A stretch of DNA of 63,248 nucleotides, filler included, from Licmophora abbreviata (taxonomy: Eukaryota): assembly GCA_900291995.1 (NCBI GenBank). It is 24 parts of 24 records of this genome, joined end to end, with 100 filler letters (N's around TTAATTAATTAA, not from the genome) between each part and the next. Parts side by side here need not be neighbours in the genome. Positions count along the whole stretch, not along the records: positions 54,886 to 56,622 come from OLMU01005449.1; 23 more parts are not named here. One strand, written 5' to 3'. The notes under the pieces were generated by a model. The model had not been told where the DNA came from and made no database searches. It saw nothing but the letters and a program-made list of their open reading frames with translations. The position numbers and the translations under genes were made by a program. Positions 53,240 to 61,319 of this stretch are shown here, one piece after another. Each line of letters begins with the position of its first letter. Position 1 is the stretch's first letter.

Positions 53240-54423
53240 ATGGTTGCTTTTGCACCTCTCATCATCTTTGCACTGGTCGCCCTGAATCGCTCTACCAACA
53301 ACAACAACAAGATGTCCAAGGGATCTCTCGCTGCTGCTCCCAGCAACAACAAGAACGTCTCACCTTCCGACGAAACAAGTCCCAAGCAACAGGGTATTTT
53401 GCGCGTGCACGGACCAGACGCCAAGGGCATCGTGGCAGCCTTTTCTCAGACTCTCTATGGCCATGGCTGTGGAATCGTGGACAGTGAACAGAGTACCGAT
53501 CATGCGTTGCAGCTTTTCTTTCAGCGCATTCACTTTGACTATAGCAGCATGCACACGGACCGAATCTCTCTCGAAACGGGCATTCAGGAAGTCTGTGATC
53601 GTTTTCAGATGCAGCACGAGCTGAACTGGAGGGAGAGTAAGCCTCGTATTGCAATTATGGTGTCAAAGTACGATCACTGTCTCTGGGAACTCTTGTTGCG
53701 ACACCGTGCGGGGGAGCTGGACTGTGACATTGCGGCGATCATTTCGAATCATCCAGATCTACAGTCTATCGCAGACGCCTTTGATATTCCCTTTCAAGTC
53801 TTCAAAATTACCAAGGACACCAAGGCGGAACAGGAAGAAAAGGAGTTGGAGGTCTTGAAGAACATGTACAACGTGGACTTGGTGATTCTGGCGCGCTACA
53901 TGCAAATCATCTCGGCCAACTTTTGTGAGGCCTTTCAGCATCGGGTTATCAACATTCACCATTCCTTCTTGCCAGCCTTTGTGGGAGGCAAGCCCTATCA
54001 TCGAGCGCATGAGCGAGGCGTCAAGTTGATTGGAGCGACGGTGAGTGCATTTGGTCCGTGTGGGGCTCGTGTGGGTTTGTCGAAATTTGTCTTTCTCACT
54101 GACGGGCGATCCTTTGTTCTTGTTGATTTCTTAGGCGCACTACGCCACTGCTGATCTCGACGAAGGGCCCATCATCGAACAGGTACGTCCTGCCTCTTGG
54201 AGGGCACCGGTCGTTCATATTTCCATTCTCAATTCCAATTCTGTCTTTTCTCTGTCCACACAACCAGGACATCACTCGCATTTCGCATCGCGACGACGTG
54301 AACGAACTGTTGCGCAAGGGTCGCACTTTGGAAAAGAATGTGCTTGTCTACGCTGTCAAGGCCCATATTGAGGACCGCGTCATTGTCTACCGAAACAAAT
54401 GTATTGTATTTGGCAGTAGTTGA
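53240..54423 (+). CDS. purU: Formyltetrahydrofolate deformylase; exons 53240-54040, 54135-54182, 54268-54423
   Basis: ACT domain GPDAKGIVA, then VSKYDHCL, SNHPD, LARYMQI, INIHHSFLPAF and GATAHY...LDEGPIIEQD. Two phase-0 GT-AG introns. Confidence 0.95.
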
Positions 54424-54887
54424 TGGATATTGGGAAATTAGTAGTGAACACGAGTATGTATGTTGTATTCTCATTTTTAGGAGTACTCTCCACGTCCTCC
54501 TCGTCCACGCGGTCGAGGCGCACGTGAAAGGTCGGGCCGTTTTCTAGAGAGCACATAAAAATTAGACTAGAAAGAATTCGCAGTGCTATATATGGTCGGC
54601 AGGCTAAGAAAGAAAAGCTAACTGTGAGGAGGGGATAGGGGTTCGCGTTTTTCGACAGGCTCGACGAGCGCAAAGGATCTGGCGGTGGGCGCCCAAAGAT
54701 TCCCATCATACCAATTATCCTCATGACTGAATAATTTGGAAAGCTGGGCGTCCTCCAAAACCAGTCCCACAATTTGATGTCTGGCNNNNNNNNNNNNNNN
54801 NNNNNNNNNNNNNNNNNNNNNNNNNNNNNTTAATTAATTAANNNNNNNNNNNNNNNNNNNNNNNNNNNNNNNNNNNNNNNNNNNNAC

Positions 54888-56095
54888 ACGGTTCAGTCCT
54901 TAGCGTCGCGCGTGAATGCTGCTGGATGTACCTTCGTTCAGCTCCCTCCCAAGGTGACCCAGATCATCTCCTCGAAGCCCGTGATTGCCATCTGCGCCAC
55001 TCGCACCGGTACGGGAAAGAGTCAGACCACTCGCTTCGTGGCCGATTACCTCAAGAAGCACGGAAAGAGGATTGCGGTGGTCCGCCACCCGATGCCGTAC
55101 GATCAAGTGTTACTCAAACAACGCTGTCAGCGTTACGAGACGTTGGAGGACATGGATAAGTACGACTGTACAATTGAGGAGCGTGAAGAATATGAGCTCC
55201 ACATTGAGGAAGGAAATCTGCTGTTCGCTGGAGTCGACTATGACATGATTCTCCGAGAGGCTGAACTGGAAGCTGATGTGGTGTTATGGGATGGAGGCAA
55301 CAACGACAGTAAGTCAACCCCCCGTGTCTTTGTTTGCAATAGCTTTGAAGAGACTATCGCTCCCACGCTGCCGTTTTTATTCCTACAACAGCTCCTTTCT
55401 ACAAGCCAGACCTGCAGATCTGCGTCGCAGACGCTTTGCGCGGAAGCCACGCCGAAAAGTACTATCCTGGCGAGCTCAACGTGCGAATGGCCAACGTCAC
55501 TCTTATCAACAAAGTCAACTCGCTTCCGGGCATTCAAGCAGCCTACGAGCAGGCGGATCTTCTAAGGCGAATCACCAAGGACAAGTCTACTGTGATGCTG
55601 GGAAACTCTATTGTCCGCGGTGAAGGCAAGGATGTCACGACTGGTCGTCTCTTGAGTGACGGGGAAGTCACTGCCATGGTGCGTGGTAAACGAGTGCTGG
55701 TGATTGACGATGGTCCAACATTGACGCACGGCGGTATGCCATTTGGTGCCGGCTTTGCGCTCGCCAAGCAGCTCGGAGCCGGGGAGATTGTGGATCCTCG
55801 TCCCTACGCCAAGGGCTCGCTCGCGGGCGTCTTTGAAAAGTTCAGGCACCTTGATTGTGTCTTGCCGGCCATGGGCTATGACCAGGCTCAAATCAAGGAC
55901 TTAGAAGCCACCATCGAAGCATCCGAAGTGGACTGTGTCGTCGTGGGGACTCCAACTGACTTGAGCCGCGTGCTCGAGGTCAACAAGCCATTCGTCCGTG
56001 CTCGCTACAGCCTCGAAGTGGTGCCGGCCAACACGGAGCAGTTCTCCAAGAGCGTTGACTCGGTCTTTCATCGCTTTGCCATGCGTGGGCATTAG
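54888..56095 (+). CDS. arcE: COG2403 P-loop enzyme (arginine synthetase ArcE / cyclic 2,3-diphosphoglycerate synthetase family); 5' truncated; intron 55309-55391
   Basis: RTGTGKSQTTR P-loop, RHPMPY, TIEEREEYE, WDGGNND|TPFYKPD, YYPGELN, DGPTLTHGGMPFGAG, VDPRPYA and LPAMGY motifs. A GT-AG intron restores the frame. The family call is firmer than the functional call. Confidence 0.8.
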
Positions 56096-56240
56096 ATAGC
56101 TTATATATGATACAGTAGTAGATCGAACATTATAGCGGCGGACACAACACATAATGTTGAAGTATACGATAGGACTGTTTCCTATTGGCACCGGTTTTCA
56201 TTCTCAAGCCAGTTGCAACACGGCCTCGATTCAAGCGCTC

Positions 56241-56622
56241 TCAGTAGAACTCTGTATGGTCGTGTCCGTTCTCGCTGGTTACAAAAGTGCCGGCCTGGCA
56301 TGCCATCATTCTGTCCGCTTCTTTCAACGACGCAATCGCGCTCCAGCGTCCACCATGCGTGACGAACTCAATGGCACTCTCGACTTTGGGGCCCATAGAC
56401 CCGGCTGGAAACTGCTCTGAAAGCTCAGTCAGTCGCTCAGGAGAAATAGACTTGATCCACTTTTCGTTGGGAGTACCAAAATCTATCGCCACACCGGGCA
56501 CGTCGGTCAAAATGAGTAGTCCATCCGCCTTGAGGCTGCTGCCAATCATGGCAGCAGCACGGTCCTTGTCAATAACCGCTTCCACGCCCTTCAAACGCTT
56601 TGTTTCTGGATCTTCCACAACA
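56241..56622 (-). CDS. arcC: Carbamate kinase (3' part)
   Basis: [29 protein letters not shown] and AGT motifs. Confidence 0.93.
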
Positions 56623-56722
56623 NNNNNNNNNNNNNNNNNNNNNNNNNNNNNNNNNNNNNNNNNNNNTTAATTAATTAANNNNNNNNNNNNNNNNNNNNNN
56701 NNNNNNNNNNNNNNNNNNNNNN

Positions 56723-58412: not shown

Positions 58413-58843
58413 GCTTGATGAAAGTGTTCATTAACTTTACAGAATTTCAAAAATAAAATTGATTTGTGATCGCAGAGGCTAAAAAAGAAAGAGAGAGTAG
58501 AAGAGAGCGAGCGGCAACGACGAGGCAATCTCCATGGTGGTTGTGTCGTAAATAGAGTTTGGAACGAAAAGATTTACACCGACTTAGAGTATAGAGATAC
58601 GGAGGCAGGCCAGCCGCAACTTAGGACTACTTCGACTAGCGCAAGATCTGGCTTGTCATGTCTCACACATGTGACTACTTCGACTATCCAAATCCGTTTC
58701 AAGTTTCAAGATTCGTGTTTGACAAAAAATGGACCATGATGTGTTTCGAACAGACACTTCAATCTCGCGACTGACTCTACCAGAACCGGTGCTTGTGTTA
58801 TATGCCAAGAGTAGCCGCCCCCCAAGAGACGAAACCTTGAGTC

Positions 58844-61319
58844 ATGCCGAATACGGATAAAGTTTTGGGAGGGAACAGCAGCTTCGAAGAGGCTCCTCCA
58901 GGTTTCGACTCGTGCCAGCGTGACAGTACTAGAAATGAATGCACGACCTCATCCTCTTCGTCAGAAGAAGAAGAAGAAGAAGAAGAACGACAGTCTGAAG
59001 TTTCTCCAGAGGAAGAAGAGGAATGTGCATCATGCTCTGTTGAACAAGGCGAGGTCGTTGTAAAAGCAGTATCAGTAGAAGAGGGAGTAGAAGATCTACC
59101 AGCACAGTTGCTAGAAGTTTTACAGGTGGCGTCTTGCTTTGGTGCCTCAGGATGGACGAAACGGCAGTTGGCGTGTGCTCTTGACCAAACATCCGCTTGC
59201 AAATCGATACTACGAGAAGCGGTCGAGCGACACATTGTCGTCGTCAGCAACAAACAGTATACGAGTACTAGTAATGATGGTGCAATACACTACCATGCGT
59301 ATTTCGAGTTTGCCACCGAAGAGCTACGAGCGCAAATATATCAGTCGATTCCCCAACAACAACAAGGTCGATCTGAACTTCATGCGACCATTGCTCGACG
59401 TCTGAGGACTAGACGGGAAGGGATTTCTCAAGTTGTTGTACGACAAGACGACGATGATGACAGCGACACTGAGCTCATCCTCGTACAACAGTTTCTGAAA
59501 GGCGAATCATCCATACAAGCGGATGAACACTATCCGATTGCCGCCCTGTGTCTTTCGACGGGAAAAGGGCTTGTGCGAAAGTCTGATTTCAATCAGGCAT
59601 CCTTGTATCTTAACTTTGGAGTTCGACTCTTAGTGCTTGGCAACAACGATACCAACAACAGTGACAATCGAAATCAGCGTTGTTGGCATGATGAGTATGA
59701 CTTGAGTTTGGCCTTGTATCAAGCGACAGCCGAAGTCAACTATTGTGTTGCTTGCTTTGATGAAGCGGAAGTTTGTGTCCATGCCGTGAGGGAGAATTCT
59801 CGCAACTTTCAAGATACCCATGGAGTCTATGCAACCTATGTTTACGTACTGGGGGCGCGGGGGCAACGAGAGGAAGCCATCGCTACGGGGCTAGACGTAC
59901 TGAAGCGCATGGGAGAGCCGCTGCCGTCTCATCCGAAACGGCCTCAGACTCTTTGGAACTTTATTCAAACACGACGCATGTTGGCGGGCAAATCTGACGA
60001 GATGCTATTGCGAATGCCCCCGATTGAGAATGACACAGTCATGGCGACTCTGCGCATGCTGAATCTAATCTTCTCACATGCTTTTTTCGTCCCGACCGGA
60101 ACTGGTTCCACTTTTGGTTTTTCGCATGGTACAGTTGACGGTCCGGAATGGACTTAGCGTCATGTCGTCAGTTGCCTTCGCCAAGTATGGGATGGTTCTA
60201 TGTGCTATGCGGCTCTTCGCGGACGGCGAACGGTATGCGCAGCTGGCGCTGACGCTGTTTGAACGATTTCCAGTGCAGGAATGGCTGCCCCGAGTCTATA
60301 CAGGAGTCTACGGTGGCGTCTACAGCAGTGTCAAGCTTACGGACACAACCCTCGAACCCTTGCGACACGCATATCGTGTGGGCCTCTTGACGGGTGATAT
60401 TGAGGTACGTGTCCATATCCAAGAGTTGCCATGGTATATTGTTGGTTTGCGACTCATCATATTCTTCCTTTTGGTGTCGTCTTATCCGTTTCAGTTTGCC
60501 CTTATTGCGGCGCACGTTTACGCGTACAATTTGTTTTCATTGTGTCGACCGTTGGCGTTTCTGGAACGCGAAATGGTGGAATTCTGTCATGCGGCAGAAG
60601 CACGCAAGCATGAATTGGTGCAGATACGGAATTCTATTTTTTTACAGTTTATCCAGAATCTTCGTGGCAAAGCGAGCGGGGATCCTACCATCTTGACAGG
60701 GGACATCTTTGATGAAGTCACGAACCGAGAACAGTTAACCAGTGATACAATGCTGAGGGAGTTCTTTCATTTCTACAAACTCAAGCTATGTTTTCTCTTT
60801 CGTGGCTTAAACGCGGCGCGGCATCAGGCCGAAGCGAGTCGAGGGCTTCGCCGTGTTCCGACAAGTCACGTGGGTTTCATCTACTTGCAGCTGTTCGATG
60901 CTTTGTCAGCTTTGGCGCTTTCCCGAAAAGAGGGCCAAGGACGTCGTCCTGCCAGACGCCTGACTCGCGACACGCTGAAAGCATTGGAGCGCCGCGTCTT
61001 GCAGAATCCAGTCTTCTGTAGTGGCAAGCTGTTTCTTTTGCAAGCCGAGTTGGCGTGGTCGTTACAACAACACGATGTTGCGGTTCAAAAGTTTACATGT
61101 GCGATAGCCCTGTCGTCGCAGGGTGGATTGCTGTTGGATGAGGGACTTTCCAACGAATGTACAGGCCGCTATTTTCTGGAGCGGGGTGACAAGCATCTTG
61201 CGTCGAGTCACTTTCAACAAGCTCATAAGGCCTACGTCAAATGGGGAGCCACGGCAAAAGCGGAGCATTTGGCAAACGAAATGGCGAGGTCGATGCAACT
61301 AGATCCCCTGTCTTCGTAG
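58844..61319 (+). CDS. C-terminal winged-helix/TPR-like part of a STAND/AAA-ATPase-type protein with no NTPase domain; frameshift near 60085; intron 60405-60494
   Basis: VLQVASCFG, FEFATEELRAQIY, WHDEYDLSLALY, YRVGLLTGDIE and AYVKWGATAK resemble the C-terminal region of multi-domain AAA_16-type ATPases. The in-frame 90-nt intron is GT-AG. Confidence 0.65.

Follow-up and report, generated by a model that had tools for sequence, protein, structure and literature searches.

The juxtaposition of two genes on a short contig of the diatom Licmophora abbreviata (GCA_900291995.1) raises the question of whether a eukaryote carries an arginine synthetase (ArcE) that works together with carbamate kinase (CK), and whether, as the original prediction held, the locus is a prokaryotic arc-type cluster. 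The window, meaning the whole 63,248-nucleotide stretch of DNA that was analyzed, is a chain of contigs with N-spacers between them. The pair fills one whole contig (G000:C5449, window 54886-56622, 1737 bp), which has an N-spacer on each side and whose ends cut off both genes. The predicted arrangement, an intron-bearing gene convergent with CK on one contig with stop codons 145 bp apart, is confirmed by the sequence and comprises the following features.

54786..54885, no strand: N-spacer (assembly gap) upstream of ArcE-like exon 1
54888..55308, plus strand: exon 1 of the ArcE-like gene, its 5′ end lost at the contig edge; diatom proteins are its best matches, at up to 86% identity
55309..55391, plus strand: intron of 83 nt, GT-AG spliceosomal type, phase 1; frame and homologous motif are restored on its removal
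55392..56095, plus strand: exon 2 of the ArcE-like gene, with a TAG stop and the motifs DGPTLTHGG and LPAMGY
56096..56240, no strand: interval between the convergent stop codons, exactly 145 bp in the sequence
56241..56622, minus strand: 3′ part of CK, 126 codons, with a TGA stop at 56241-56243
56623..56722, no strand: N-spacer, standing for a gap and the omitted short contigs C5450 (CK 5′ half) and C5451

Exon 1 of the ArcE-like gene encodes a P-loop (RTGTGKS) and the motifs RHPMPY, TIEEREEY, and WDGGNND. The intron begins with GTAAGT and has a pyrimidine-rich 3′ end. Its removal leaves a single 374-aa frame with zero internal stops and rebuilds the WDGGNND-x-xFYKPD motif found in the homologue alignment. 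Splicing is inferred here from sequence and homology; one RNA run gave a single 145-base identical piece with no joint, which bears on neither expression nor splicing. Presumably, the N-spacer at 54786..54885 conceals the promoter and the ~105 codons at the start of ArcE, and a search of assembly G000 for these ~105 N-terminal residues did not find them. At the other end of the gene, the 3′ untranslated regions of the two genes may overlap in the 145-bp interval. The last 126 codons of CK match TIGR00746 (E 3.8e-33) and PRK12354 (E 8.3e-35), and its 5′ half lies outside the window on the next contig (G000:C5450, 931 bp), where it begins with a 50-residue leader that contains 7 Arg or Lys and 0 Asp or Glu residues. 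Leaders of this kind, rich in Arg and Lys and free of Asp and Glu, are typical of mitochondrial presequences.

Several other genes surround the pair. The contig upstream encodes the formyltetrahydrofolate deformylase PurU (window 53312-54423, plus strand; TIGR00655 E 5e-77) with two apparent introns; purU was considered as a member of an ArcE-CK cluster and set aside, as nothing ties it to the pair. The short contig C5451 (L129), between CK and the next window contig, carries a fragment of a MORN-type repeat protein, recognized by eye. Large TPR-like open reading frames follow at window 58841-61319 (plus strand), with an apparent frameshift near 60100 and weak Pfam matches only. We take these frames to resemble the C-terminal parts of diatom ATPase/adenylate-cyclase-type proteins.

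The question of contamination is a real one because the assembly contains bacterial-like contigs, which are gene-dense and intronless and have a GC content of 57-68%. These contigs (C4708-C4710, C1022, C5071, C3853, C2298, C1095, C2200, and C3792) bear argD-argF, pyrB-pyrC, and argG operons and derive from a contaminant or associate of the diatom, presumably alphaproteobacterial as judged by gene types. C5449, in contrast, has a GC content of 53% and a GT-AG intron. The named best matches of the ArcE-like gene are from Cyclotella, Thalassiosira, Skeletonema, Gedaniella, Mayamaea, Fistulifera, and Nitzschia, those of CK are from Fistulifera, Mayamaea, Thalassiosira, and Nitzschia, and both proteins fall in diatom clades. 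Because it is nested inside such a clade, the ArcE-like gene does not come from a bacterial contaminant of the assembly. In addition, CK runs on into the next contig with its presequence-like leader, and the pair is present in other diatoms. Bacterial contamination or mis-assembly of this contig therefore retains next to no probability, and the predicted nuclear origin of the gene is borne out by its intron, base composition, best matches, and tree position.

To place the + strand gene, its product was compared with characterized and predicted members of the ArcE family. Since a scan of genome contigs with the forward primer for TK2200, the ArcE of Thermococcus kodakarensis, gave no match, a named Thermococcus MAG locus (L023, 449-aa protein) stands in for TK2200 itself. 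L023 is treated as the TK2200 orthologue because its ends agree with the residues read from the published TK2200 primers, the first being equal and the last nearly equal. In a one-against-one comparison, the window protein is 51% identical to L023 over 350 residues (E 6e-127). The published inclusion rule for ArcE is a BLASTP E value below 1e-100 to TK2200 and a length of more than 380 aa (PMC11032458, Fig. S10 legend). On E value, measured against L023, the window protein lies within this rule; its visible part of 374 aa is 5′-truncated, and the full-length diatom homologues in alignment A1 have 445-542 aa. An alignment of 35 prokaryotic ArcE rows has 118 columns that are at least 95% conserved, of which the visible window protein covers 85 and leaves 33 outside. 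At 80 of these 85 covered columns, P-loop included, the residue is identical, a count taken over all conserved columns, and the differences include the conservative changes E>D and G>S. Diatom rows do have features of their own: 17 of the 118 positions are kept by fewer than 80% of them (7 of the 17 in the N-terminal domain missing here), and an insertion of ~15 residues precedes the C-terminal domain. The window protein belongs to a diatom-type clade in both trees that were built (FastTree, 117 rows, support 1.0; second tree, 69 rows, SH-aLRT 90). Based on these results, the spliced product is, by sequence, a member of the ArcE family, and it very probably has arginine synthetase activity.

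The rival assignment is to cyclic 2,3-diphosphoglycerate (cDPG) synthetase. The label COG2403 was that of the original prediction, the JGI name for the homologues is ‘predicted GTPase’, no Pfam or NCBIfam family model covers the protein, and many databases label its homologues ‘cyclic 2,3-diphosphoglycerate synthase’. These labels are best read as transferred annotation because one gene so labelled sits 32 bp from arcC: on a haloarchaeal plasmid (L148:3033-5347, NZ_CP147842.1), arcC and an arcE-type gene annotated as cDPG synthase are arranged head-to-head. In a structure model of P0001, the closest full-length homologue, modelled in place of the window protein (pLDDT 87.9), cDPG synthetase is the top fold match, at 13-15% identity and a TM score of about 0.44, and the LpxK structure 4EHY is also matched (E 5e-9). 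A likeness of TK2200 to 4EHY is likewise reported in the ArcE paper (PMC11032458). Solved cDPG synthetases gave no match to either exon or to P0001 by phmmer at E <= 1, and matched a 21-sequence diatom ArcE profile weakly (E 1.2e-4 to ~0.19). The cDPG synthetases (PDB 8ORK, 8ORU, and 9SXB) are thus distant structural relatives from the same P-loop group, which differ from the window protein in sequence and catalyze a different reaction. A switch of the diatom protein to a different substrate with a guanidino or ureido group, or an identity as a P-loop ligase of the cDPG synthetase kind, would fit the database labels, the top fold match, and the diatom-specific changes at some conserved N-domain positions; set against 51% identity to the Thermococcus ArcE and the same label on a gene beside arcC, either is improbable. 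The prediction of ArcE rather than cDPG synthetase is thus upheld by the identity to L023, the conserved positions, and the weak profile match. As to phylogeny, nesting among ArcE proteins is seen in two trees, but no cDPG synthetase is present in either (a search of five Thermococcales genomes for an outgroup yielded ArcE only), and separation from that family rests on similarity.

The linkage of ArcE and CK extends beyond this contig. The two genes are consecutive in both subgenomes of Fistulifera solaris (GAX10449/GAX10450 and FisN_21Hh147/148) and adjacent in Mayamaea (MPSEU_001036300/001036200), but are apparently unlinked in Thalassiosira profunda, where they have distant locus tags (ACHAXT_010143 and 008391) and contigs of different sizes. 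Synteny of the pair therefore holds in two other diatom genera and apparently fails in T. profunda. An indirect comparison drew on 68 diatom-clade ArcE entries, 29 of them with a longest contig of at least 3 kb, and 76 diatom-type CK entries. By this strand-blind matching of contig sizes, 10 of the 29 ArcE entries, both named cases among them, share an exact size with a diatom-type CK (0.07 expected, the mean on shifted sizes); the other 19 may reflect limits of the entry lists or real separation. In a metagenome scan, 2 of 80 ArcE loci were of diatom type (L038 and L039), with no CK within their short flanks, and no ArcE relative was found on the viral contigs searched. ArcE-CK linkage is thus conserved in no fewer than two further genera of diatoms. 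Being convergent, the two genes cannot be driven by a common promoter, which counts against their coupling.

Conserved adjacency also bears on a reading in which the main task of ArcE is to provide carbamoyl phosphate, or ornithine as a precursor of proline and polyamines, the ATP being incidental, the adjacency to CK historical, and co-regulation slight. In T. kodakarensis, proline synthesis draws its ornithine, and pyrimidine synthesis its carbamoyl phosphate, from ArcE and ArcB, and loss of arcC has little effect (PMC11032458/PMC13260591); the seeming loss of linkage in T. profunda would agree with this. Adjacency is nevertheless kept across several diatom subclades, and diatoms are reported to obtain ornithine already through arginase and a plastid pathway, so this reading is given a low probability. 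Functional coupling of ArcE to CK is, by comparison, quite likely.

The remainder of the pathway was sought in the same genome. After matches on the high-GC bacterial-like contigs were set aside (2 of 4 for ornithine or aspartate carbamoyltransferase, 1 of 2 for argininosuccinate synthase, and 5 of 7 for the arginase family), diatom-like contigs were found to carry ornithine carbamoyltransferase (OTC), argininosuccinate synthase, arginase, and an agmatinase-like gene. The diatom OTC is located on contig C3714, beside a pyruvate-carboxylase-like gene, and not near the ArcE-CK pair, where the original prediction proposed to look for it. No arginine deiminase was found in this fragmented assembly: the only PF02274 match is dimethylargininase-like and scores 35 bits against arcA models with cut-offs of 414-489. 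That gene (G000:C2632, L136:1081-2139) lies on a diatom-like contig and has a presequence-like N-terminus. CK is reported in many diatoms, where it forms two groups, and arginine deiminase is reported to be absent from SAR (Novak 2016, PMC5052871). Because ArcE and deiminase substitute for one another among prokaryotes (PMC11032458/PMC13260591), ArcE is the natural missing partner of the diatom CK.

Taken together, these genes would form a reversible arginine-ornithine shunt yielding two ATP, a reading that we consider likely on the evidence of gene content and homology. In the proposed mechanism, ArcE would take the slot of arginine deiminase in anaerobes and interconvert arginine, ADP, and Pi with citrulline, NH3, and ATP. 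The unlinked mitochondrial OTC would convert citrulline by phosphorolysis to ornithine and carbamoyl phosphate, and CK would convert carbamoyl phosphate to CO2 and NH3 with formation of a second ATP. Each step would be reversible. The window protein groups with leaderless ArcE proteins (P0001 and Thalassiosirales) whose N-termini lie 4-16 residues ahead of the first conserved strand, and most members of a second subclade (Mayamaea and Fistulifera) have basic leaders. From this grouping, the basic leader of CK, and the listing of Phaeodactylum CK and OTC as mitochondrial, ArcE is probably cytosolic and CK mitochondrial in this organism, the N-terminus of its own ArcE being missing. Citrulline and ornithine would then cross the mitochondrial membrane, as in a urea cycle run backwards, and a cytosolic ArcE beside argininosuccinate synthase and lyase would create a futile cycle unless regulated.

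The direction of the shunt is less firmly indicated. TK2200 is a tetramer specific for L-arginine, with ADP cooperativity, a Keq of about 10, and a poor affinity for ammonia (Ks about 110 mM ammonium sulfate) (PMC11032458). According to our own arithmetic, with this constant as determined at 80 °C, citrulline and arginine equilibrate at a ratio of ~10 at an assumed ATP/ADP of 5, 1 mM ammonium, and 5 mM Pi, where breakdown is favoured, and of ~0.1 at an assumed ATP/ADP of 10, 20 mM ammonium, and 2 mM Pi, where synthesis is favoured. Because the ratio swings this far across the assumed conditions, the ArcE step appears poised. Published transcript values for the Phaeodactylum CK, J24238, at 15 min are 170 with NH4+, 146 with NO2−, 77 with NO3−, and 54 without nitrogen, on the reading that data columns 4-6 stand for samples at 15 min, 45 min, and 18 h. 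This CK moves with OTC and argininosuccinate synthase and opposite to arginase. Its rise on nitrogen resupply argues against a role in starvation, and the nitrogen-remobilizing function first proposed for the pair is weakened accordingly. N-replete expression of CK fits both cheap ammonium capture and recovery of ATP from plentiful arginine. No Phaeodactylum ArcE was present among the named matches, and no data for darkness or anoxia were found in the literature searched.

These expression data are also where a mainly anabolic use of the same enzymes finds its footing. Following a pulse of ammonium, CK would make carbamoyl phosphate, OTC citrulline, and ArcE would fix a second ammonia into arginine, at a cost of 2 ATP (one each for CK and ArcE) compared with 4 phosphoanhydride bonds for carbamoyl phosphate synthetase plus the argininosuccinate route, giving a cheap ammonium sink and nitrogen store. 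In Phaeodactylum, CK shares the N-replete class RT102 with OTC, peaks with ammonium, and rises as arginase falls, and TK2200 is reversible and supports arginine synthesis from citrulline and ammonium in vivo (PMC11032458/PMC13260591). Class membership is, however, weak evidence because RT102 and RT184 together span over half of all genes, and the orthology of J24238 to the window CK is assumed. The poor ammonia affinity of TK2200 also speaks against synthesis; in T. kodakarensis, CK delivers too little carbamoyl phosphate (PMC13260591), and for every organism with argininosuccinate synthase and lyase the authors of the ArcE paper infer that the enzyme is catabolic. A mainly anabolic use is therefore regarded as unlikely, in a small way ahead of ornithine supply. 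A net catabolic direction is slightly favoured, and the likeliest net use of the shunt would be to gain ATP and ornithine from arginine in N-replete cells at high ADP, not to scavenge nitrogen in starvation.

The ArcE family and the occurrence of arcE homologues in ‘a few eukaryotes’ are already published (PMC11032458, 2024), and those few may include diatoms; the conserved linkage and the likely split between compartments are new here. The words eukary- and diatom are absent from the available text of PMC13260591, and no description of a diatom ArcE or of the ArcE-CK pair was found in the literature searched, which includes PMC10328945, PMC4446992, PMC12924338, and bioRxiv 2020.01.24.918219 but few subscription journals. 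Diatom CK has stood without a clear role, as no deiminase is reported in SAR (PMC5052871) and the enzyme carries zero flux in a Phaeodactylum model (PMC6779911 supplement). An ArcE partner gives it the missing first step. If the enzyme is active, an ATP-coupled reaction between arginine and citrulline, running near equilibrium, is absent from models of how diatoms store nitrogen, take up ammonium in surges, and survive in the dark. A more speculative proposal, which we put forward tentatively, is that diatoms combined two bacterial genes, gained in separate events, with a mitochondrial OTC of their own to build a reversible arginine shunt, that after nutrient pulses ammonium is stored in arginine for half the ATP that the urea-cycle route costs and two substrate-level ATP per arginine are returned in darkness or anoxia, that selection keeps the genes adjacent, and that ArcE has moved between cytosol and mitochondrion by lineage. 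If true, this would amount to the first eukaryotic arginine synthetase pathway on record and would add a missing branch to the urea cycle of diatoms.

The origin of the pair can be considered by comparison with prokaryotic loci. CK is found within 1.3 kb of arcE in 30 of 111 prokaryotic arcE loci and OTC in the flank in 23, both being present in 18, and all 30 arcE-CK neighbours are co-directional. A natural fusion also exists in a 766-aa Logan protein (P0395), with CK N-terminal and ArcE C-terminal. In Acidobacteria (L019:5998-10303, L005, L012, L013, L016, L025, and L035), arcE, OTC, and CK are followed by a second carbamoyltransferase, which at L019 is aspartate carbamoyltransferase; this suggests that carbamoyl phosphate derived from arginine feeds pyrimidine synthesis there. 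P0058 and P0095 form a well-supported sister of the diatom ArcE clade, and together with it are sister to a group that includes a protein from Phycisphaerales (SH-aLRT 100 by fast tree search, taken as a lead only). ArcE-family proteins of the green algae Pycnococcus provasolii and Pseudoscourfieldia marina (P0392 cluster) lie on a branch apart from diatoms, which suggests a separate acquisition. On the CK side, the diatom sequences stand apart from the sampled arcE-operon CKs. Their best matches on plasmids come from Proteobacteria, in one case, the annotated region examined, from an arcDABC deiminase operon. Two donors, with the pair put together inside diatoms, would be the better reading of these trees, in which sampling is thin and deep supports are weak. 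A paper on Parmales disputes horizontal transfer of the diatom CK altogether.

In comparison with known systems, the term prokaryotic arc cluster overstates the locus because it has two genes only, OTC is encoded on another contig, and the thinly sampled trees hint at a separate donor for each gene. As in prokaryotic arcE-arcB-arcC operons (e.g., L019 and L116), ArcE adjoins CK, but the diatom genes are convergent rather than co-directional, and neither OTC nor a transporter lies beside them. The locus is a eukaryotic pair of two genes and falls outside the arc operon class; that it works like the arginine synthetase pathway is nonetheless probable. The arginine deiminase pathway (arcABC; metamonads, PMC5052871) shares the downstream OTC and CK and leads overall from arginine to ornithine, whereas its first step is hydrolytic and the diatom ArcE step would conserve ATP. 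With the diatom ornithine-urea cycle (PMC6779911), the proposed shunt would share OTC, citrulline, arginine, and the split between mitochondrion and cytosol; in the nitrogen gene catalogue of that source, CK is a zero-flux maker of carbamoyl phosphate, and a term search of the available text found no ArcE-type entry. Finally, the ArcE-ArcB-ArcC pathway of T. kodakarensis (PMC11032458; PMC13260591) shares with the diatom system an ArcE with conserved motifs and an LpxK-like P-loop fold, the presence of CK and OTC alongside it, and the lack of a deiminase. In the diatom, by contrast, the ArcE gene is nuclear and intron-bearing, only ArcE and CK are paired, and convergently so, OTC is a eukaryotic urea-cycle enzyme encoded elsewhere, and the pathway probably has both cytosolic and mitochondrial steps; its host is aerobic and phototrophic and has a complete urea cycle.
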